A stretch of 64,000 nucleotides of DNA, from positions 2,208,001-2,272,000 of the forward strand of contig CBDANF010000003.1 in NCBI GenBank assembly GCA_965197475.1, written 5' to 3'. The notes beneath the pieces are model-generated. The model ran no database searches, was not told where the DNA came from, and saw nothing but the letters and a program-made list of their open reading frames with translations. The first letter of the stretch is position 1. Every line of letters begins with the position of its first letter. Below, in pieces: positions 8,095 to 24,730 of this stretch. A program made the position numbers and the translations under genes. Source of the stretch: Candidatus Poribacteria bacterium. GTDB taxonomy: Bacteria > Poribacteria > WGA-4E > WGA-3G.

Positions 8095-8823
8095 TTGAAC
8101 CAGATTGCTGAAAACCTTGCAAGTGTCAAGGAACGTATTGTGGCAGCTGCGGAAAGGAGCGGTCGCGAGGCACCCACAATTAAGCTTGTTGCTGTTACAA
8201 AAGGACGTTCAGTAAAAGAGATTCAGGCAGTTCTTGGTGTTGGACTTACCACTATCGGTGAAAACCGGGTGCAGGAAGCGCAGCAGAAATACGATCAAGT
8301 TCGATCTTTTTTCGGAACAGTACCAAACACAGCTGCAACCGATCAAACATGTGAATGGCATCTTGTCGGACACCTTCAAAGAAATAAAGTAAAGTCCGCT
8401 TTGGAAATGTTTACATTGATACATTCCGTTGATAGTTTGAGACTTTTAGCGGAGATCGCGCGCCGGGCAGAAGAACAGACAAAACAGACAGATATTTTAA
8501 TTCAAATAAATACAACTGGCGAGGCAAGCAAATTCGGTTTAAATGTGGAGGATGTGCACGACTTTATGGAAAAATCATTGGCGTATTCGGGCGCACGCAT
8601 TGTTGGCTTAATGACGATGGGTATGTTAAGTCCTTCTGCTGATGCAAACCGTCCAGCTTTTGCTTTGTTGAGAAATATTGCAGAAAAGGTAACGACTGAG
8701 AAATTCCCTGGGGTAACGATGCAATATCTCTCCATGGGAATGACAAACGATTTTGAAGTTGCAATTGAAGAAGGCGCGAACCTTGTTAGAATAGGTAGAG
8801 CAATTTTCGGAAATGTCAGTTAA
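8095..8823 (+). CDS. yggS: PLP homeostasis protein YggS
   Basis: LVAVTK, GENRVQE, WHLVGHLQRNK, LSMGMTND, VRIGRAIFG. Confidence 0.95.
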   Translation: MNQIAENLASVKERIVAAAERSGREAPTIKLVAVTKGRSVKEIQAVLGVGLTTIGENRVQEAQQKYDQVRSFFGTVPNTAATDQTCEWHLVGHLQRNKVKSALEMFTLIHSVDSLRLLAEIARRAEEQTKQTDILIQINTTGEASKFGLNVEDVHDFMEKSLAYSGARIVGLMTMGMLSPSADANRPAFALLRNIAEKVTTEKFPGVTMQYLSMGMTNDFEVAIEEGANLVRIGRAIFGNVS

Positions 8824-8903: not shown

Positions 8904-9740
8904 ATGGTGGTAGAAAACCCAAAATTAGGTGTGATTGGCATAGGGAAAATGGGCGGTATCATCGCAAGGAGTATTGTTGACCGTCTGCTTCCAGCTGATC
9001 AGATTTGGATTACCGATCTGGACAAGGACCTTGTTACCCAACTCTGTGATGAAAAAAGTGTGAACGCTGCCTCAGACATTGAGGAACTCATCCAAAAGAC
9101 AGATATTATTCTCTGTGCCGTTCCACCTGTAGCTGTGCCGCACATCCTTCCACAAGTAGCGCAACACCTATCATCACCACAATGGCTCATTAGTATCGCA
9201 GCTGGAGTTACAACTAAAACGCTTGAATCATATTTTGAAAACCCGCCGCCGGTTGTTCGTGTGATGCCGAATATTGCGGCTTCCGCTGAAGCAGCGATCT
9301 CTGTGTTAACACCAGGCAGTGCTGCGGATGAGAAACATCTCTCCATAGCGCAAAAGATATTCAATACTTGTGGAACTACATTAGTCATGGAGGAACGCCA
9401 TCTGAATGCGGTTACAGGAGTCAGCGGCAGCGGTCCTGCTTATGTTGCGCTTTTTATAGAAGCATTAGCGGATGCGGGGGTACATGTCGGTTTACCTCGG
9501 CAGGAAGCACAAACACTCGCAACCCATACGGTTTTCGGTGCAGCAAAAATGTTGGCAGAGTCGCAGGAACACCCAGCTGTTCTCAAAAACCGAGTTACAA
9601 CACCAGGTGGAACAACAGCTGCCGGTCTCCATGTGCTGGAGCGGGGAAGTTTGCGCGCTACACTTGCTGAGGCTATACTTGCCGCTACAAAACGTGCAAA
9701 ACAACTTGACTCTGAAAATAGGAAAGGGAATATACACTAA
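8904..9740 (+). CDS. proC: Pyrroline-5-carboxylate reductase
   Basis: GIGKMG, RVMPN, SGSGPAY, VTTPGGTT. Confidence 0.95.
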   Translation: MVVENPKLGVIGIGKMGGIIARSIVDRLLPADQIWITDLDKDLVTQLCDEKSVNAASDIEELIQKTDIILCAVPPVAVPHILPQVAQHLSSPQWLISIAAGVTTKTLESYFENPPPVVRVMPNIAASAEAAISVLTPGSAADEKHLSIAQKIFNTCGTTLVMEERHLNAVTGVSGSGPAYVALFIEALADAGVHVGLPRQEAQTLATHTVFGAAKMLAESQEHPAVLKNRVTTPGGTTAAGLHVLERGSLRATLAEAILAATKRAKQLDSENRKGNIH

Positions 9741-10000
9741 TGCTTCTTGCCTATATTCTCAGTCGATTGCTTAATATTTATACGGTGATCGTCTTCGCGC
9801 ACGTGTTCCTTTCATGGATAGTGTTCGGCACGAAAAATTCAGTCATTCGTAGAATCTATATAGTTACAGGTCAATTGGTTGATCCGCTTCTGCAACCGAT
9901 TCGAAACCTGCTATATCCGATGACTCGAAATATTGGAATTGATCTTTCGCCAATAATTTTACTTGTGCTCTTACAAATTCTGAATTCATGGTTAATTTAG
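9740..10000 (+). CDS. yggT: YggT family membrane protein
   Basis: DPLLQPIR...GIDLSPII; yggS-proC-yggT synteny. Confidence 0.9.
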   Translation: MLLAYILSRLLNIYTVIVFAHVFLSWIVFGTKNSVIRRIYIVTGQLVDPLLQPIRNLLYPMTRNIGIDLSPIILLVLLQILNSWLI

Positions 10001-10035
10001 TCAGCGTACTCTTTCAGCCATGTCTATACTATATC

Positions 10036-11021
10036 GGCTCATGTAAAAAGTAAGTGCTATTTTTTCAAAGTTATGTTAGCGTGTTACCTATGGACTTTCC
10101 AATACAATCTCTCCTGGATGAAGAAAAAACTCAAGCGTGGGTGTTGGATCATTTCCACCTTCAAGGGCTGTGTTGCCCAAAATGCCAAGCGAGCGTGGCG
10201 GAGGCACGCAAGTTCCGTCCGACTGAAACAAGTGGTCTACAAGTGTATCGCTGCAAACACTGTGAGAGCATCTACAACCTCTATACCGGGACGGTCTTTG
10301 CTGGCACGCAGTTTCGTCCCTCACAGGTCGTTCTGCTTTTGCGCGGTGTCTGTCAAGGTGTTTCAAGTGCACAACTCGGGTGTGAACTGGGTCTAAGTCG
10401 TCAAACCGTTCTTTCTATAAGACGTAAACTCCAAACTTCGGCAGAGCAGATACAACCCGAAGCTGCTTTACCTGATGCTGAAGTCGAAACAGATGAGATG
10501 TTTCAAAACGCCGGTGAAAAAGGCGATAAGCACGTTGATGCTTCGGATCCGCCGCGTCGGCGTGGCAATAAACGCAGGGGACATGGGACTTATGACAATG
10601 ATCGTCCGCCTATTGTTGGGACGAAAGGTCGCGAAAGCGGTCTCCTGAGATTACGTGTTGTGCGGCACACCGATTCTGCGACGCTTTCAACACACGTTCA
10701 TCAGTGGACGTTGCCGACTTCAACGGTGTATACGGATGGTTGGCGTGGCTATAACCGTATTCAGCGCGCCCGTGAGATTGTTCTCCATAAGGATGGCGAG
10801 TGGGCAAGAGACGCAGACGGTGATGGTCTTTACGAGATCCATACAAGGACGATTGAAGGTGCCTGGACGACGCTGCGAAACTTCCTTCGTCCCTTTCGTG
10901 GCGTTCATAAAAAGTTCCTCGCCGGTTACGTCGCAATCTGTGAGTTCGTCATGAATCTAAAAGCTGTCAGTGTTGATTTTATAGCAAAACTCGTCAAAAG
11001 CACTTACTCTTGACATGAGCG
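10036..11021 (+). mobile_element. Complete IS1595-family insertion sequence
   Basis: TIRs GGCTCATGTAAAAAGTAAGTGCT / AGCACTTACTCTTGACATGAGCG; 8-bp target duplication ACTATATC at 10028-10035 and 11022-11029. Confidence 0.92.
10090..11013 (+). CDS. IS1595-family DDE transposase
   Basis: Zn ribbon CPKC...CKHC, HTH, VETDE, VYTDGW, TIEGAW. Confidence 0.92.
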   Translation: MDFPIQSLLDEEKTQAWVLDHFHLQGLCCPKCQASVAEARKFRPTETSGLQVYRCKHCESIYNLYTGTVFAGTQFRPSQVVLLLRGVCQGVSSAQLGCELGLSRQTVLSIRRKLQTSAEQIQPEAALPDAEVETDEMFQNAGEKGDKHVDASDPPRRRGNKRRGHGTYDNDRPPIVGTKGRESGLLRLRVVRHTDSATLSTHVHQWTLPTSTVYTDGWRGYNRIQRAREIVLHKDGEWARDADGDGLYEIHTRTIEGAWTTLRNFLRPFRGVHKKFLAGYVAICEFVMNLKAVSVDFIAKLVKSTYS

Positions 11022-11076
11022 ACTATATCTTGTTTCCTAATCTGATATTATCTTATAGGAAACGGCTACATGTTTT

Positions 11077-13659
11077 ATGAAAAAGGCAAATTCTCCTTCA
11101 CGGAACACAAAGACAAAACCTTCTAAAGGTCAATCTACAAAGAAAACACCTAAATCGGAAAACACCGAGAACGTTTTGCACAGTTCGCGAGAATCGGAAA
11201 TTCTCAAATTGTGGGAAACCCGAAAGGTGTACAAGGTTGATGAAAAAACAACAGAGTTGCCGACTTACGTGATCCGAGAAATGCCGACTCCTGTTCATGC
11301 ACTGAGTTTGGATACCCTCCGAAGAAAAATCTATCAAGATATTTTTCTGAAGTCTGAAATGATGCGGGGGCACACTGTTGCATATTCTCCACTTTGGGAA
11401 ACCTTTCCCTTTAGCACTGAAGCAAGCGTAATAAAGAAAAAAAGACCGACAGCTTCGCGAAACATTCTCAATTTCCGAAAACATTGTCGGCAATTATACA
11501 GAGAACATTTGGAAACACAACGGAAGAAATTACAGAAACTCGGAATTTTTGCAGATTGGACCTCTGCTGACAAAACATTAGAAGCACGCCACGAAACTAA
11601 GCTTTTTAGCTTCTTTGATAGACTACGGGACTCTAAATTTCTACGCTCTGAACTCAAACTCAGCCATTGGTGTCCGCATTGCGTATCACCACTGGAAGCT
11701 GGCAAAACTGCTACATCCGTATCTACTAGTGCTTTATATACCTATGTCAAGTTTCCATTCAACAACGGGTTTGAAGAATTTGGCAAAAATGTCTTTTTCG
11801 CTGTCCGTTTTCCACTTTCTCAATTGTGGGAGATCGCTGGCACCATCGCAATAGGCATTTATGAAAATGTTACCTTTTGGCTCACCGAATTTGAAAACCA
11901 ATATCTAATTTTTGCGGAGCCGCAGCTGAAGAAATTTGTTGATCCGAACACTAAAAAGAAAAAATATCCCGAACCTATCGCGAAATTAAAAACAACGAAG
12001 CTTAATAATTGCACTGTTTCTCACCCACTATTTTCGTTAACTGACCTGCCATTTTTTACAATATCAGATAAAGTTGTTGAAAACATTCCTGATACATCAG
12101 AAAGAAAGGAATTGATAGAAGGAATCATTCCGTTAAATCCCGCACATCATTCACTTAGTTATAATATCTTCAATGTGGTGCCTGAAATTAGGAACATCAT
12201 CAACTCTGATTTCTTTTCATCTACGTCAACAACACCTATGTTTGATGAAACCGGTAGGTTTACGGAAGATGCAGATACCCTATGCGGATTAAACTTGTTT
12301 AACGCTATTCAATTTATCACCGATGAATTGGAAGCACGCGGGTGCTTGATTAAGACGCGAAAACAAAAAATTCAACAACTTCACTGTCAACATTGCAACG
12401 GTTTATCAGTTTCTCGGCCTTATCGCCATTGGATGTTTTCCAGTACTTCTACTGATATTAGTGAGGAAGTTGATACTTCGCCAGAGTATTGGGGACATTA
12501 CCATGACGATATACGCGACCATATTCAGAATGAAGTGATGAATATCTCTGATATGCCGATTTCATCACAACGTCAGTGGGGAATACCGCTCCCAGTATTG
12601 CGATGCGATAACTGTAATCAGCTTATCTCGGATAAAAAAATCCTTCGAGCAGTTCGGAGTTCCATACGCCGTGGTTCTGAACACTGGTTCCGACTCAGTG
12701 TGGAAGAATTATTGCCTGCGGATCTGGTTTGTCCCAATTGTCATTCAAAGGATTTTCGAAAAGAGTCAACCTATATTGAAAGCTATTTTGCGAACTTACT
12801 TCATGCACTTGACACTTCCGATTTCAAGAAGTCAATAATTGAGACTTCTACCAATGTCGTTTTTCTGCCGCGAACCATTTTCTTCAAGTGGTTGGGCGAA
12901 TTGAGTGTGCTTTCTGCATCACTTCAACTCAGTCGACCATCTAAAGAGAGCCATCCTTTTAAACACTTGAAACTACACTGCATTGAAGAGGAAGTATGGG
13001 AAACTGAGGTACACGAACAATTTCTACAAAAATATCCAGCAGATATTCTAAGGTTAATCTCAATAGTTCCCGAATTACATCAAGTTCCACTTGAAGAAGA
13101 TGGAACACAGCAGCTTGAGTCGTTGATCGAAAACTACAATCAAAATTATACCCAGCTCAAAGAGATATTATTTCAAACAGTCGAATTGTTGACTGACCTT
13201 CGGAAGAATGGGAATTCTGATGCCCAAATAACTTTATCAAAAGAACCTGACGAGAATGTTTTTGACGCACTGTGGGAAACAGATGCACTTGCAGTTTCGT
13301 TAACCAAACTGCTTTTGATTGACGTTGAAGCGGCTTATCAGGAAAGGGATTTTTACGGGATGTGGCAGCTACTGTTTGATTTTTGTCAAACAGAGCTTCT
13401 ATTTTATATTCACTTATGTCGAACTGAAGTCTCATATAAGAGGTCAGAATCCACGCAAATTGCACTATCAACAATATTCAAAGTGGTTGTTCAACGTCTT
13501 GCCCCGATTTTTCCTTACTTAGCAGAAGAGATTTATGCTGACGGATTTTCTCCTTCGGTAAGTATTTTTGAAGAAAAGTGGTGTAATTTATCACCAATCA
13601 TTAGCGATAATAACACGAGAGCGCAGTGGGAATCGTTGAAAAATGTCCATCAATCCTAA
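11077..13659 (+). CDS. Isoleucyl-tRNA synthetase-like protein, catalytically degenerate
   Basis: Colinear with IleRS (LGIFADW, HWCPHCVSPL, YVKFP, FDETGRFT, ISSQRQWGIPLP, KYPADILRL, RLAPIFPYLAEEIY) but lacks HIGH, GWDCHGLP, TTTPWT and KMSKS; directly upstream of lspA. Confidence 0.85.
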   Translation: MKKANSPSRNTKTKPSKGQSTKKTPKSENTENVLHSSRESEILKLWETRKVYKVDEKTTELPTYVIREMPTPVHALSLDTLRRKIYQDIFLKSEMMRGHTVAYSPLWETFPFSTEASVIKKKRPTASRNILNFRKHCRQLYREHLETQRKKLQKLGIFADWTSADKTLEARHETKLFSFFDRLRDSKFLRSELKLSHWCPHCVSPLEAGKTATSVSTSALYTYVKFPFNNGFEEFGKNVFFAVRFPLSQLWEIAGTIAIGIYENVTFWLTEFENQYLIFAEPQLKKFVDPNTKKKKYPEPIAKLKTTKLNNCTVSHPLFSLTDLPFFTISDKVVENIPDTSERKELIEGIIPLNPAHHSLSYNIFNVVPEIRNIINSDFFSSTSTTPMFDETGRFTEDADTLCGLNLFNAIQFITDELEARGCLIKTRKQKIQQLHCQHCNGLSVSRPYRHWMFSSTSTDISEEVDTSPEYWGHYHDDIRDHIQNEVMNISDMPISSQRQWGIPLPVLRCDNCNQLISDKKILRAVRSSIRRGSEHWFRLSVEELLPADLVCPNCHSKDFRKESTYIESYFANLLHALDTSDFKKSIIETSTNVVFLPRTIFFKWLGELSVLSASLQLSRPSKESHPFKHLKLHCIEEEVWETEVHEQFLQKYPADILRLISIVPELHQVPLEEDGTQQLESLIENYNQNYTQLKEILFQTVELLTDLRKNGNSDAQITLSKEPDENVFDALWETDALAVSLTKLLLIDVEAAYQERDFYGMWQLLFDFCQTELLFYIHLCRTEVSYKRSESTQIALSTIFKVVVQRLAPIFPYLAEEIYADGFSPSVSIFEEKWCNLSPIISDNNTRAQWESLKNVHQS

Positions 13660-13686
13660 ACCTAAAATCAATGGGAAACTCAGGAA

Positions 13687-14181
13687 GTGAATTCTCCGAT
13701 TCAATACTTTAAAAAGATTTTGCCATTAGTAATAGTGGCTATTCCAACATTGTTACTTGATATTTTCACCAAATTGCTTGTCCGCATGCACATTTCTATA
13801 GGGCATGGGCATGCGATAATCCCAGGTTTCTTTAATTTGCGACACCATAGAAACACAGGTGCAGCTTTCGGAATTTTTTCAGATCAACGTACATTACTCA
13901 TCATAGTAACAATCGCAGCGTTAATCTTTATTTTTGTCTATTCTTTCAGATTCCAGAATAGCAGATGGATGCAAACCGCACTCGGTTTTCTACTTGGTGG
14001 GGCAGTCGGAAACTTTATTGACCGCATCTATTTGGGCGAAGTGGTTGATTTTCTTCAGTTTGGTATAGAAAGCAAAAAACTATTTTGGCCCACTTTTAAC
14101 GTTGCTGATATCTCAGTGTGTATAGGCGCAGGGATGCTCATTGTTTACCTTTTTCGTCTTCAGAATCGAAGCGTAAATTGA
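13687..14181 (+). CDS. lspA: Lipoprotein signal peptidase II
   Basis: NTGAAFG, GGAVGNFIDR, VVDF, FNVAD. Confidence 0.96.
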   Translation: MNSPIQYFKKILPLVIVAIPTLLLDIFTKLLVRMHISIGHGHAIIPGFFNLRHHRNTGAAFGIFSDQRTLLIIVTIAALIFIFVYSFRFQNSRWMQTALGFLLGGAVGNFIDRIYLGEVVDFLQFGIESKKLFWPTFNVADISVCIGAGMLIVYLFRLQNRSVN

Positions 14182-14393
14182 GTTGACAACGATGGAAATT
14201 ATGCAAACAGAACAATATCTATCTCGTGTCCGCATTTGTAAACAGTTGACGCAAAACTATAGTGGATATAGACATGTTGTGACCCACATGCGCGGGGATT
14301 CCACTTCGGTAGACGAGGTTTCCTAACCTTGCCTGTTCAGACTGTCTCAGACTGCCTCGTTAATTCTAAAATCTACCATAAAAGGATTGAAAA

Positions 14394-14951
14394 ATGTTGA
14401 AATTTAGAAGTGGAATGTTTGTGCTTTCTTTTGCAGTTTTCTTTGCAATCGTGCCATATTCACAAGCTCAAAACCAAACAACCCAAGAGGAAGAATACAG
14501 CGAAAGCGCGTTACGTAGGTTTGAAATAGTAACGTTAAGTGCGCTCCCATTTACAGCAGTCCATAGTTATTTAGGGGTTCGCGGCATAAAAATGATTCAG
14601 ACAAGTAAAATCGCGCCTATATTGACACCGCAGAATTATCGTGTAATGGGTATTACTGCCGTTTCGTTATCCCTATTCATCGGTTTTTGGGATTGGTTAC
14701 ATACCCGCAATGTAGACAGGTCAGCACCGAGTGTGCCAGGGCGAAAACCCCCATCACCTCCGACTGAGGATGGCATCCCTCCTGATGGAAGTATTGCGCG
14801 TGCTCCAAGTTTTGGACCACATGCGAATATGTATGGCATCTCAACATATCTTGGACAGCCTCACCGATGGTCGCAAAACACTGCGCTGAATATGTGGGCA
14901 ACCCAACCATCTGTTGGTTTAGTCATCCCACTGTTTGAAATACGATTTTAA
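14394..14951 (+). CDS. Hypothetical exported/membrane protein
   Basis: Signal peptide (...SQA), TM segment, Pro-rich tail. Confidence 0.6.
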   Translation: MLKFRSGMFVLSFAVFFAIVPYSQAQNQTTQEEEYSESALRRFEIVTLSALPFTAVHSYLGVRGIKMIQTSKIAPILTPQNYRVMGITAVSLSLFIGFWDWLHTRNVDRSAPSVPGRKPPSPPTEDGIPPDGSIARAPSFGPHANMYGISTYLGQPHRWSQNTALNMWATQPSVGLVIPLFEIRF

Positions 14952-15002
14952 TCGCATTTTTCTTGATCGCTCAATGATTAATGGACATAGGTAGTATACA
15001 AA

Positions 15003-16004: not shown

Positions 16005-16970
16005 ATGAACACGCTTAATAAGACTTTATGGGAAATGGTCAAGATTGCTGCCTATTGCTTGATTGTAATGGGAATAGTCGGGTCGTTGACACTTTTCATT
16101 GTTATTCCGCAATGGATAAAGTCAACTGAAATTTTGGTTCCAAACCTTGTAGGTAAACACTATTACCAAGCACTGCAGACACTTAAAAATGCAGGACTTA
16201 AACCAAATAATACGCTTCTATTTGAGAGTAGTAGCAAACCGAAAGGGGATGTCATCAAGCAAACCCCCCTTGCCAATATTAGTATTAAACCCCAGCAAAC
16301 TGTTCAACTTACAGTCAGTATTGGTGCTGATCTAATGGCTGTTCCATCAGTTATTGGAAAATCGGAAGATGCAGCACACGAAACGCTCAAAACTGCTGGT
16401 TTTCGTCCAAATTCGGTTGCTTATGTCCATTCAACAAATTATTTACCGGACACCGTCATCGCTCAAAATCCTGCAGAAAGTATTCCAAAAAAACGCGCCA
16501 GCGATGTGAACCTATTGATAAGTCTTGGAAGAAAACCGGAAAACATTCAGCTGCCAGACCTGCAGAACTATCTCGTCAGCGAAGTATTACCCGCACTTAA
16601 AGCGATTGGTTTGGATGTTGAAATTAAAAATAGTCCACATCCAAAAATTGAGCAAGGGAGGATTATTACACACAATAAACTTGTTCAAAGCGGCGACCTA
16701 ATTACACTTGAAGTCAGCGGTAAACGTGGTAACACCGAAAATATTGGCAGGTTATTAACATATAAACACACCGTTAGTGAAGAAGGGAATCGAGCAAAAG
16801 AAGTCCGAATCATTATTATTGATGAATATCGTGAACGCGAAGTCCTTAAAGGATCTTATGCGCCTGGAACCGTAATTGACTTGGAAAAAAGAAGAGTCAG
16901 GGTTTTCGGTCCAACACTGGTAATTGTGTTTGAAGATGGTAAAAAAATGTATGAGCGTCAATATCAATAA
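16005..16970 (+). CDS. Membrane-anchored PASTA-domain protein (3 PASTA repeats, no kinase domain)
   Basis: N-terminal TM; VPNLVGK, VPSVIGK and LPDLQN repeats. Confidence 0.85.
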   Translation: MNTLNKTLWEMVKIAAYCLIVMGIVGSLTLFIVIPQWIKSTEILVPNLVGKHYYQALQTLKNAGLKPNNTLLFESSSKPKGDVIKQTPLANISIKPQQTVQLTVSIGADLMAVPSVIGKSEDAAHETLKTAGFRPNSVAYVHSTNYLPDTVIAQNPAESIPKKRASDVNLLISLGRKPENIQLPDLQNYLVSEVLPALKAIGLDVEIKNSPHPKIEQGRIITHNKLVQSGDLITLEVSGKRGNTENIGRLLTYKHTVSEEGNRAKEVRIIIIDEYREREVLKGSYAPGTVIDLEKRRVRVFGPTLVIVFEDGKKMYERQYQ

Positions 16971-22093: not shown

Positions 22094-24730
22094 TTATGAG
22101 GATGTAAGCATTGTAAGGCTACGTGCTAACTTTTCCTGTTCAATCGACAGTCGTTCAAGCAGTTCACGCTTTTGTGCGACAACTTTTTCAGGTGCACGTT
22201 CAATAAAATTAGGATTTTCTAATGTTTTCTGTGCTGCTTCAATGTCCTTGACTATCTGCCGATGCCGTTTCGTTAGTCGTGCTTTTTCTGCTTCAAGATC
22301 GATTACTCCTGCTAATGGAATATAGATAGCGAGTTCTCCTATAACAGCCTCTGCTGAGGCAGGTGGTTTCGGCAAAGATTCAGCAATGATGATATTTTCT
22401 ACTCGCGTAAATGCAGGTAAGTATTGTTTGAGATAGGTTTTGAGCCGATTCCGTACTTCAGCATCTGGTGATTGAATGTGAACGTCCACAAATGCTCCGA
22501 TCGGAACATTTAACTCGCCGCGGATGCTTCTAATATTCTCAACAACTTCCATGACGGTTGCCATAGTGGCTTCTGCAGTTGGATTTTCTTTTGTCGGTTT
22601 TGGCCAAGGTGCTACTGTAACTGAAACTCCTACATCGTGTGGAAGTTGTTGCCAAATCTCCTCTGTTAAAAACGGCATGAGTGGGTGTAGGAGCCGCATC
22701 ATCTGTTCTAAAACATCGGTTGCAACCCACAACGCTTTTGGATCGTCAGTGGTGAGACGTTGTTTAGCGAATTCCAGATACCAATCACAGAATTCATGCC
22801 AGAGAAACGCATAGAGAGTTTGTGCTACTTCGTGGAAGCGAAAGTTCTCAAGTGCATCGGTAGCAATTTTTATGGTATGGCTCAAGCGGCTCTGTATCCA
22901 CTGAACTTCTAATGGATTTTCCCTTTCTGTTACCTCTTGTCTTGAAGGAATAGGATATTTCTCTAAATTCATGAGAATGAATCGGGCTGCGTTCCACACT
23001 TTGTTAGCAAATCGTTTACCTGCCTCAATCTGAGATTCAGGCAACGGCACATAAGGGTTCGGCGTACTGGCGTTTACAAGCGAGAATCGGAAGGCATCTG
23101 TGCCATAAGTAGCAATCGTCTCCAATGGATCAATGCTATTCCCTTTCGACTTGCTCATCTTCTGTCCCTTCTCATCCGCAACAAGACCGTGTAGGTAGAC
23201 AGTACGGAATGGAACTTCATCCATACATCCCAATCCTAACATTATCATTCTTGCTACCCAGAAAAAGAGAATGTCCCACCCTGTTACAAGCACAGATGTA
23301 GGATAAAAGGTATTCAACTCATCGGTTTCTTCGGGCCAACCCATTGTTGAGAAGGGCCACAAACCTGAACTGAACCAAGTATCTAAAACATCTTCTTCTT
23401 GATGGAAATCAGTTGCACCACACTTGCACTGTTCCGGCGTATCCATTGCGGCAGTTGCTTTTTCGCAAGCATTACAGTACCATATTGGCAGTCGATGTCC
23501 CCACCATCTTTGGCGTGAAATCGGCCACGGTTCAATATTTTCCATCCAGTGAAAAAACCGCGAGGTTTCGCGTTCGGGAATAAATGATACTTCCCCTTTT
23601 TTAGTGGCTTCTATAGCACGTTGTGCAAGCGGACGAACATTCATAAACCATTGCAGCGATATTGCAGGTTCAACTATTGTTCCACATCTATCATGATGTC
23701 CAACAGCATGTCTATGCGGCACAATTTTAACTAAATATCCTGCCTTATCCAAGTCTTCAACTACCTTTTTCCGGCAATCCCAACGCGATAAACCTACGTA
23801 GTTCTTGCCTGCATCCTTATTCATGTGTCTGTCAGCGGTGAAAATCGTACGTTGTTCAAGGTTGTGCCGCAAGCCGATTTCATAGTCGTTGGTATCGTGG
23901 GCAGGCGTAACTTTCAACGCACCTGTCCCAAATTCTGTATCCACATATTCATCAGCTATAATCGGAATCTCTCTGTCACAAAGCGGGAGGAGAACTTTTT
24001 TCCCTATTAGGTGCTGATAACGTTCATCGTCAGGATGGACTGCAACTGCAGTATCACCCAACATCGTTTCAGGACGTGTGGTTGCGATTTCAAGCACAAC
24101 ATCGCTATCTATAACAGGATAGTGGATATGGTAAAAATTACCATCAATTTCAATCGGTTCCACTTCAAGGTTACTCACTGCGGTATTGCATTGTGGACAC
24201 CAATTCACCATATAGGTATCTTGATAGATAAGTCCCTGATTGTAGAGTTTAACAAAGGCGGTACGAACTGCTTCTGACAACCCGTCATCAAGTGTAAACC
24301 GTTCACGTTTCCAATCACAAGAACATCCGAGTTGTTGAAGCTGTGAGACGATATATCCTGCGGATTCATCTTTCCACTGCCACATCCGTTCAATGAATTT
24401 TTCACGACCCAGAGCGTTTCTACTTGTGCCCTCTTCGGCAAGTTTCCGCTCCATGATAAGCTCAGTTACAATGCCCGCGTGGTCGGTTCCAGGCATCCAG
24501 AGAACGTTGTAGCCTTGCATGCGTCGCCATCGGATAAGACAATCTTGTAGTGTGTTATCAAGCGCGTGTCCAATGTGCAAGCTGCCAGTAATGTTCGGGG
24601 GTGGAATCACAATCGCATAGGGAGGTTTGTCGGAGGTGGCTTCGGCATGAAAGAAACCGTTGTTTTGCCAAAATTGGTACCATTTACCCTCAATTTCCTG
24701 AGGGTCGTAAATCTTTGGAAGACTTGTCAT
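22094..24730 (-). CDS. valS: Valyl-tRNA synthetase
   Basis: PPPNITGSLHIGH, TTRPET, KMSKS, C-terminal coiled coil. Confidence 0.97.
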   Translation of the reverse strand: MTSLPKIYDPQEIEGKWYQFWQNNGFFHAEATSDKPPYAIVIPPPNITGSLHIGHALDNTLQDCLIRWRRMQGYNVLWMPGTDHAGIVTELIMERKLAEEGTSRNALGREKFIERMWQWKDESAGYIVSQLQQLGCSCDWKRERFTLDDGLSEAVRTAFVKLYNQGLIYQDTYMVNWCPQCNTAVSNLEVEPIEIDGNFYHIHYPVIDSDVVLEIATTRPETMLGDTAVAVHPDDERYQHLIGKKVLLPLCDREIPIIADEYVDTEFGTGALKVTPAHDTNDYEIGLRHNLEQRTIFTADRHMNKDAGKNYVGLSRWDCRKKVVEDLDKAGYLVKIVPHRHAVGHHDRCGTIVEPAISLQWFMNVRPLAQRAIEATKKGEVSFIPERETSRFFHWMENIEPWPISRQRWWGHRLPIWYCNACEKATAAMDTPEQCKCGATDFHQEEDVLDTWFSSGLWPFSTMGWPEETDELNTFYPTSVLVTGWDILFFWVARMIMLGLGCMDEVPFRTVYLHGLVADEKGQKMSKSKGNSIDPLETIATYGTDAFRFSLVNASTPNPYVPLPESQIEAGKRFANKVWNAARFILMNLEKYPIPSRQEVTERENPLEVQWIQSRLSHTIKIATDALENFRFHEVAQTLYAFLWHEFCDWYLEFAKQRLTTDDPKALWVATDVLEQMMRLLHPLMPFLTEEIWQQLPHDVGVSVTVAPWPKPTKENPTAEATMATVMEVVENIRSIRGELNVPIGAFVDVHIQSPDAEVRNRLKTYLKQYLPAFTRVENIIIAESLPKPPASAEAVIGELAIYIPLAGVIDLEAEKARLTKRHRQIVKDIEAAQKTLENPNFIERAPEKVVAQKRELLERLSIEQEKLARSLTMLTSS

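Follow-up and report, generated by a model that had tools for sequence, protein, structure and literature searches.

Why would a bacterium keep open, over 2.6 kb, a gene with the build of an isoleucyl-tRNA synthetase (IleRS) and none of the motifs by which such an enzyme works? The question is raised by a 64,000-nucleotide stretch of DNA from Candidatus Poribacteria bacterium (assembly GCA_965197475.1, contig CBDANF010000003.1, positions 2,208,001 to 2,272,000 of the forward strand), hereafter called the window. Poribacteria are a sponge-associated bacterial phylum. The gene in question, called the relic below, is an uninterrupted open reading frame (ORF) that starts with ATG and encodes 860 amino acids plus a stop in IleRS domain order (Table 1). 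We consider it likely, with a probability of about 0.8, that it is a catalytically dead relic of an IleRS1 that has been retained by selection in a genome whose real IleRS is encoded elsewhere.

The assignment to the synthetases is firm. Residues 42-634 match the Pfam domain tRNA-synt_1 with 92.8 bits (cut-off 22.7) and residues 740-857 match Anticodon_1 with 42.6 bits (cut-off 25.1). These two domains and a fold of the type shared by IleRS and valyl-tRNA synthetase (ValRS) place the relic in the class Ia synthetase superfamily. The best NCBIfam family is ileS (TIGR00392, E 4.4e-53 with hmmscan), although the score of 180.7 bits lies far below the equivalog cut-off of 621.4; in a profile scan of the whole genome the same family returned the relic with 147.8 + 35.3 bits. 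ORF, Pfam domains and the TIGR00392 match thus agree with an earlier description, made from the letters and ORFs of the window (the sequence-only reading), of an uninterrupted frame colinear with IleRS, and a chance origin of an open 2.6-kb frame with such family matches is far too improbable. The closest sequences of known structure, found with phmmer, are IleRS1 of Priestia megaterium (8c9e/8c9f, approx. 108 bits), followed by IleRS1 of Staphylococcus aureus (1ffy, 97 bits) and by type-2 IleRS at 56-59 bits. An AlphaFold2 model built from a 116-row alignment reached a predicted local distance difference test (pLDDT) score of 89 and a predicted template modelling (TM) score of 0.89, with pLDDT below 50 for residues 1-34 only. 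With this model as the Foldseek query, IleRS1 structures ranked first (8c9e, E 4.8e-35, TM 0.65), followed by other IleRS and by ValRS at rank 20, the IleRS and ValRS matches having a probability of 1.00.

The catalytic and editing motifs are gone from this frame. The segment corresponding to PPYANG..HxGH reads EMPTPVHALSLDT, with LSLD at the position of HIGH, and the signature is missing, in the HxGH as well as in the type-2 GxHH form, from every aligned sequence of the relic clade. The alignments further show LWETFPFS in place of GWDCHGLP and FPLSQLWE in place of TTTPWT. The editing block GTGxVHxAPxHGxxD is represented by IPLNPAHHSLS, EGxDQxRGWF by FLPRTIFFKW, and the KMSKS loop by a shorter EEVWET. 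ISSQRQWG is retained. Hence none of the sequence features of a functional IleRS was found, be it HIGH, KMSKS, GWDxHG together with EGxDQxRGW, or the editing motifs of connective peptide 1 (CP1). The C-terminal Zn-binding domain of IleRS1 is also missing and the protein is approx. 100 residues short; its alignment to PDB chain 8c9f (921 residues) stops at residue 767. The sequence-only reading had listed the changes at HIGH, GWDCHGLP and the editing motifs, the absent KMSKS and the missing C-terminal Zn finger, and each of them was upheld in residue-level alignments.

A comparison of conserved columns gives the same division into lost and kept parts. Ordinary IleRS1-like sequences (78 in the alignment) share 87 columns that are conserved to at least 90%; 17 representatives of the relic clade have lost 35 of these columns and retained 24. 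What has gone are the catalytic and editing motifs, whereas the retained columns consist mainly of Trp, Pro, Gly and Cys, with a few Arg. Four CxxC pairs (C199/202, C437/440, C510/513 and C552/555) provide two zinc sites, site 1 with C199, C202, C437 and C440 and site 2 with C510, C513, C552 and C555. All eight cysteines are invariant among 25 orthologues from the genus, in agreement with the earlier statement that four CxxC sites and SQRQWG remain. In the same set 170 of the 860 positions are invariant, and residues 521-560, including R527, R531, R532, G533, W537 and F538, form the most conserved block.

That the native ileS had been displaced by a second enzyme was part of the sequence-only reading. 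A search of the genome (5.7 Mb) supported this, as the genome contains exactly one IleRS above the cut-off (G000:C3:3693810-3696320, 972.3 bits, frame of 1057 aa). This is a type-2 enzyme that reads PPFANAPPGVHH and carries GVHH, GWDTHGLP, TTTPWT and KMSKS. Twelve more IleRS2 genes from the genus were inspected, and all 12 have GVHH and KMSKS as well. According to the available sections of Brkic et al. 2023 (PMC10485003), type-2 IleRS with GXHH is an active, mupirocin hyper-resistant natural variant, and no natural IleRS1 with a non-canonical signature motif was found. The presence of an intact type-2 IleRS in the same genome therefore argues that the relic is not the working synthetase. Of all alternatives we regard it as the least probable, and extremely so, that the relic is nevertheless a working IleRS with unrecognisable motifs. 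Its full-length IleRS fold and the tolerance of IleRS2 for a swapped HIGH motif would be in accordance with such a view, but HIGH, the positions of the amino-acid-binding Asp and Gln, and KMSKS are all replaced or deleted, and even the exchange of HIGH for GXHH abolished the activity of IleRS1 (available sections of PMC10485003). Moreover, an intact IleRS2 is conserved in the genomes examined, except that the second IleRS-like gene of G057 is seen only as a 437.6-bit piece at a contig end.

In lineages without the relic, the IleRS was compared at loci L180-L183 (genomes G037, G034, G026 and G029), and that of some is unusual. Genera g5 and g3 encode a different, longer protein (1119-1191 aa), which shares 35-41% identity with the IleRS2 usual in Poribacteria and has the motifs GVHH, GFDCQGLW, PGQFRNWF and xMHKS. 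Genus g2, also without the relic, retains the usual IleRS2 type (69% identical).

The relic is clearly under purifying selection, most strongly in what was once its catalytic body. Ratios of nonsynonymous to synonymous substitution rates (dN/dS) were estimated by the Nei-Gojobori method; 51 of the 300 pairs within the genus were saturated. Pairs with a dS of 0.17-1.0 gave a dN/dS of 0.14-0.27, the four closest pairs (dS < 0.14) gave 0.34-0.47, and the pooled value was 0.197 (bootstrap 0.181-0.215, 9 pairs). In two other genera the relic is under comparable constraint, with 0.17-0.24 in g6 (21 pairs) and 0.09-0.21 in g13 (28 pairs). The neighbouring genes, compared in the same genome pairs at dS > 0.3, reached 0.11-0.17 (yggS), 0.11-0.24 (fmt), 0.07-0.11 (proC) and 0.07-0.15 (lspA). 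Constraint on the relic thus resembles that on its neighbours and is looser than that on IleRS2, for which six shared genome pairs gave 0.05-0.13 as compared to 0.15-0.45 for the relic. Synonymous divergence also differs strongly between loci within the same genome pair, for example 0.54 at IleRS2 as compared to 0.17 at the relic (L167/L168 against L013/L014, and likewise in other pairs), a pattern suggestive of recombination among species of this genus.

These values bear on the claim of the sequence-only reading that a frame open at such divergence is under selection. The orthologues share the motif losses, and each of the 24 genomes compared within the genus has an intact copy free of stops (frames of 854-890 aa, identity 52-73%). 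Their dN/dS lies at approx. 0.1-0.25 in three genera. Two outcomes had been named as fatal to the claim, a sole and active IleRS and, in relatives, stops with neutral decay; neither was observed. Motif loss and purifying selection beside an enzyme of the working type are what characterizes a pseudo-synthetase, and the relic combines them, its loss of activity being read from the sequence.

The relic is not confined to one genus. A match at E <= 1e-20 was obtained in 154 of 176 genomes of the phylum, with no internal stops among the matches listed. It occurs in all 111 genomes of its own family, in 25 of 29 of family f3 and in 6 of 7 of family f4. All orthologues examined are without catalytic motifs. 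In other classes (families f8, f9 and f10) an IleRS-like gene scoring 223-445 bits, below the threshold, is also devoid of HIGH and KMSKS, and three genomes of these classes (G041, G054 and G056) encode an IleRS2 above the cut-off with more than 900 bits each. When 1.84 billion representatives were searched exhaustively and without a profile, 1813 matches were obtained at E <= 1e-3, 47 of them at E <= 1e-30, and the top matches all lack the motifs. A maximum-likelihood tree of 66 sequences unites the Poribacteria relics in a single clade (21 rows) with a support of 100 in the Shimodaira-Hasegawa-like approximate likelihood ratio test (SH-aLRT). This clade falls on the IleRS1 side of an IleRS1/IleRS2 split with an SH-aLRT of 100, and the Poribacteria IleRS2 form a single clade of their own, again with 100. 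Taken together, tree and distribution date both the acquisition of IleRS2 and the loss of IleRS1 activity to a time before the sampled families diverged.

The position of the gene points in the same direction as the tree, and both assign the relic to the IleRS1 lineage. The order yggS-proC-yggT-X-lspA-orf185-fmt is found in 16 of 16 loci compared. We also fetched 80 IleRS1-like loci from other bacteria, 74 of which had enough downstream sequence to be informative, and in 52 of the 74 an lspA-like gene directly follows the IleRS1-like gene. This adjacency indicates that the relic occupies the ancestral ileS position, as the sequence-only reading had proposed from the conserved neighbourhood. 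We therefore conclude that the relic is most likely the original IleRS1 of the Poribacteria lineage, still at its old place before lspA, and that its job has been taken over by the type-2 enzyme with GVHH and KMSKS encoded elsewhere. As the residues for these steps are gone, the relic would presumably no longer activate isoleucine, charge tRNA or edit.

Several observations weigh against this interpretation. The inactivity of the relic is deduced from its motifs. The match of the model to the IleRS1 fold arises partly by construction because ordinary IleRS1 sequences dominate the AlphaFold2 input alignment (78 of 116 rows), so that the model mainly shows the relic sequence to be compatible with a full IleRS architecture. 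The tree is a quick LG+G4 search in which many rows have a deviant composition. In the six shared genome pairs, dN of the relic is 1.0-3.8 times that of IleRS2. Furthermore, none of the 11 genomes of family f2 and none of the four of genus g3 has the relic. In five of these genomes proC, with or without yggT, directly adjoins lspA, and such a clean deletion in two lineages implies that the relic is dispensable in some backgrounds. Finally, Logan contigs from four sponge metatranscriptome runs of three studies, placed on positions 9000-15000 of the window, cover the relic poorly. Two short contigs without errors (10998-11191 and 11254-11446) overlap it at a depth of 2.5-2.9, and it is otherwise mostly uncovered; for comparison, depth is 2.6-4.5 at proC and 2.6-3.9 in the stretch after lspA. 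Most of the signal comes from a multi-copy insertion sequence (IS) of the IS1595 family, whose RNA contigs are very deep (approx. 60-2900) and have many different flanks. The low cover of the relic is compatible with low transcription and could also stem from DNA carry-over.

Could the frame be open merely as a by-product, either as a slowly decaying pseudogene or as a spacer for lspA transcription or translational coupling? The start of lspA lies on the same strand 27 nt downstream, and the sparse RNA cover and the dispensability in f2 and g3 would suit this explanation. We nevertheless consider it very improbable. Purifying selection at the amino-acid level in three genera (dN/dS 0.09-0.24) is explained neither by an open frame nor by transcription, 25 species with identities down to 52% have 170 of the 860 positions in common, internal stops are missing among the matches listed for 154 genomes, and lineages without the relic express lspA regardless. 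The selected, catalytically dead IleRS1 remains the reading that accounts for the data best.

What such a protein might do has to be judged from the parts that were retained. Purifying selection has preserved the whole multi-domain, zinc-stabilized body from a time before the sampled Poribacteria families split, and the relic does not decay. We infer that the function of the relic depends on this folded body. Most likely, the relic acts as a non-catalytic binding protein that would use the kept body of catalytic core and connective peptide. Binding is favoured over a new enzymatic activity because only four residues (R171, G231, E233 and R527) set the relic clade apart, being conserved within it but seldom found in ordinary IleRS1. 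When a new catalytic signature was sought in the relic clade, these four formed no interpretable site.

Accordingly, a re-purposed enzyme or ligand sensor with new chemistry in the old pocket, for instance on an aminoacyl-tRNA substrate, appears improbable. Cyclodipeptide synthases are a precedent for enzymes that accept aminoacyl-tRNA substrates and have no ATP motifs, and the two Rossmann halves are the most constrained parts of the relic (dN/dS 0.13-0.17). Within the IleRS family, the homologue SbzA of Streptomyces transfers Ile from Ile-tRNA and thus has a role outside translation, as described in the available sections of PMC12945691 and PMC9437257. However, SbzA, which was modelled on IleRS2 structures, keeps HYGH and the lysine of the KMSKS loop and belongs to a biosynthetic cluster (PMC12945691, available sections), whereas the relic has neither motif, lies in a housekeeping context and offers no obvious catalytic set among its four clade-specific residues. 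SbzA was therefore rejected as a model for the relic.

Which ligand the putative binding protein would hold is less certain. Its basic N-terminal tail and the kept class Ia architecture suggest tRNA(Ile) or another RNA, with the tail assisting in family f1, and we put this forward as a tentative proposal that falls short of even odds. The N-terminal 35 residues contain 9 K+R and 2 D+E (pI 10.5) and are predicted to be disordered, which bears out the Lys-rich extension described earlier, and across the genus the tail has a median net charge of +6. It is present in genera g1 and g13 of this family and missing from genus g6. A number of points speak against RNA as the ligand and in particular against binding of the tRNA anticodon. 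The tail is confined to family f1 and weakly constrained (dN/dS 0.52), and the core domains, inspected for added positive charge as a mark of RNA binding, showed none relative to working enzymes. The anticodon-binding domain, on which the sequence-only reading had placed weight, is the least constrained folded part (dN/dS 0.29) and more acidic than in working enzymes: it contains 16 K+R and 35 D+E in the relic, its median net charge is -8 as compared to -3 in ordinary IleRS1, and a comparison of pI shows a weak trend only. The loss of the C-terminal Zn domain adds to these objections.

Alternatively, the relic may act via a protein partner as a regulatory or scaffold subunit, for example of the type-2 IleRS or of another translation or envelope factor, much as some dead enzyme paralogues control active relatives. 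The concentration of constraint on the body (core dN/dS 0.13-0.17 as compared to 0.29 at the anticodon-binding domain) fits this explanation, and the scarcity of clade-specific conserved residues argues against a new active site. In addition, two of the three genera without the relic (g5 and g3) have a different IleRS, as expected if the usual IleRS2 were the required partner. But genus g2 has lost the relic and still encodes the usual IleRS2, so that the correlation holds in two of three cases among related lineages, and the neighbourhood, being no more than the ancestral surroundings of ileS, offers no clue to a partner. On balance we consider a protein partner rather unlikely.

Synthetase-derived proteins without aminoacylation are a known kind. 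One of them is HisZ, a non-catalytic class II regulator with a single-domain core and HisG as its partner. Like HisZ, the relic is derived from a synthetase, probably does not aminoacylate and has been retained by selection; unlike HisZ, it has preserved a full class Ia body of 860 aa, and a partner is known for HisZ only. HisZ is among the synthetase-derived proteins listed in the available sections of PMC9437257. The closest analogue of the relic by behaviour is LeuRS-I of Sulfolobaceae, a duplicated class Ia copy with a disrupted CP1 that is kept beside a working enzyme. According to the same sections of PMC9437257, LeuRS-I does not aminoacylate, has a divergent, acidic C-terminal domain and is important for optimal growth, yet it still makes leucyl-adenylate and binds tRNA(Leu). 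In the relic, by contrast, the adenylation motifs are gone, and its origin would be the displacement of a native gene and not a duplication. Concerning gene content, Poribacteria resemble those Bacilli that carry IleRS1 and IleRS2 side by side. In Priestia megaterium ileS1 and ileS2 both encode active enzymes, IleRS1 being the fast housekeeping one (available parts of 10.1101/2022.02.09.479832 and 10.64898/2026.02.03.703510), whereas in Poribacteria only IleRS2 is intact. Compared directly with IleRS1 (8C9E; 1FFY/1QU2 of Staphylococcus aureus), the relic agrees in domain order, fold, both core Zn sites, the locus before lspA and the side of the tree, and differs in its lack of catalytic and editing motifs and of the C-terminal Zn domain, in its score far below the cut-off and in the added basic tail.

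Judged by its sequence, the relic is an ancient IleRS1-derived pseudo-synthetase under purifying selection, which joins the known synthetase-derived non-catalytic proteins. Our literature search turned up no account of an IleRS1 lacking its motifs, nor one of the Poribacteria gene itself; the trees and alignments in the supplement to Brkic et al. 2023, which lay outside the search, might include Poribacteria. The case amounts to a natural experiment in which a type-2 IleRS with the mupirocin hyper-resistance motif took the place of the native enzyme, while the old gene remained at its locus, lost all catalytic residues and was nevertheless conserved across the phylum, and it raises the question of what use there is for a full-size synthetase body that is apparently unable to charge tRNA. 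It also has a practical side. In public sources, relic proteins go under the names 'isoleucyl-tRNA synthetase' and 'class I tRNA ligase family protein', and for sponge symbionts such labels can distort metabolic reconstructions as well as phylogenies built on marker genes.

Motif-less IleRS1-like sequences are also found outside the relic clade. The tree contains a second IleRS1-like clade of 12 representatives (P0029, P0034, P0037, P0049, P0051, P0052, P0058, P0059, P0066, P0073, P0093 and P0096; SH-aLRT 99), all without KMSKS and mostly without HIGH, two of which are named Armatimonadota by their sources. P0025, with the source name Bacillota, is another motif-less case. The second clade and P0025 may represent independent pseudo-IleRS1 families. 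A look-up with P0029 returned mostly ordinary IleRS1 loci, with no genome carrying a member of the second clade among those returned. The genome closest to P0029 (G176) was rejected as a relic case, since its IleRS1 reads HLGH and KQSKS and it encodes an IleRS2 as well.

The second KMSKS-less clade and the Bacillota example suggest that the same route has been taken elsewhere. It is conceivable, though doubtful at present, that IleRS1, once displaced by IleRS2, has repeatedly persisted as a 'ghost' with a new non-catalytic role, which in Poribacteria would be a phylum-old factor that binds tRNA(Ile) or another RNA or modulates IleRS2. If this were true, pseudo-IleRS1 would be a recurrent, unrecognized family of translation-linked regulators that databases label 'isoleucine--tRNA ligase'.

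The features of the relic and its surroundings are compiled in Table 1.

Table 1. Segments of the relic and neighbouring features in the window (dN/dS by the Nei-Gojobori method).
Feature	Residues	Position	Strand	Characteristics	dN/dS
Putative IleRS1-derived pseudo-synthetase gene (relic)	1-860	11077..13659	+	ORF, profile and structure evidence	
N-terminal extension	1-35	11077..11181	+	Lys/Ser/Thr-rich, predicted disordered	0.52
Rossmann fold, first half	36-197	11182..11667	+	LSLD and LWETFPFS	0.17
CP1 (former editing) domain		11668..12396	+	Zn site 1 clamp, editing motifs eroded	0.17
Rossmann fold, second half		12397..12996	+	Zn site 2, SSQRQWG kept, EGxDQxRGW lost	0.13
Degenerate KMSKS loop and helical anticodon-binding domain	641-860	12997..13656	+	acidic	0.29
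yggS		8095-8823	+	conserved upstream flank	
proC		8904-9740	+	conserved upstream flank	
yggT		9740-10000	+	conserved upstream flank	
IS1595-family insertion sequence		10030..11027	+	transposase ORF 10054-11013 (Pfam DDE_Tnp_IS1595)	
lspA (signal peptidase II)		13687..14181	+	27 nt downstream of the relic, conserved ileS partner	
orf185		14394-14951	+	ORF of 185 aa, no Pfam match	
PASTA-domain protein		16005-16970	+	321 aa, after fmt, before the ribulose-phosphate 3-epimerase gene	
ValS		22094..24730	-	HIGH and KMSKS present	

The ValS gene of the window had been described as retaining both signature motifs, and this holds. A scan of the whole window against Rfam at gathering thresholds gave no match, hence no T-box or other known leader was seen. 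Downstream of lspA, orf185 follows in all 16 loci compared (42-74% identity) and also in five loci without the relic. The order of fmt, the PASTA gene and the epimerase gene is conserved in related loci. The IS1595 element is inserted 49 nt upstream of the start codon of the relic at a site that is empty in 16 other loci compared. It is bounded by 32-nt terminal inverted repeats (81% complementary), and the genome contains 32 full-length copies at 99-100% identity and four more at approx. 71%.

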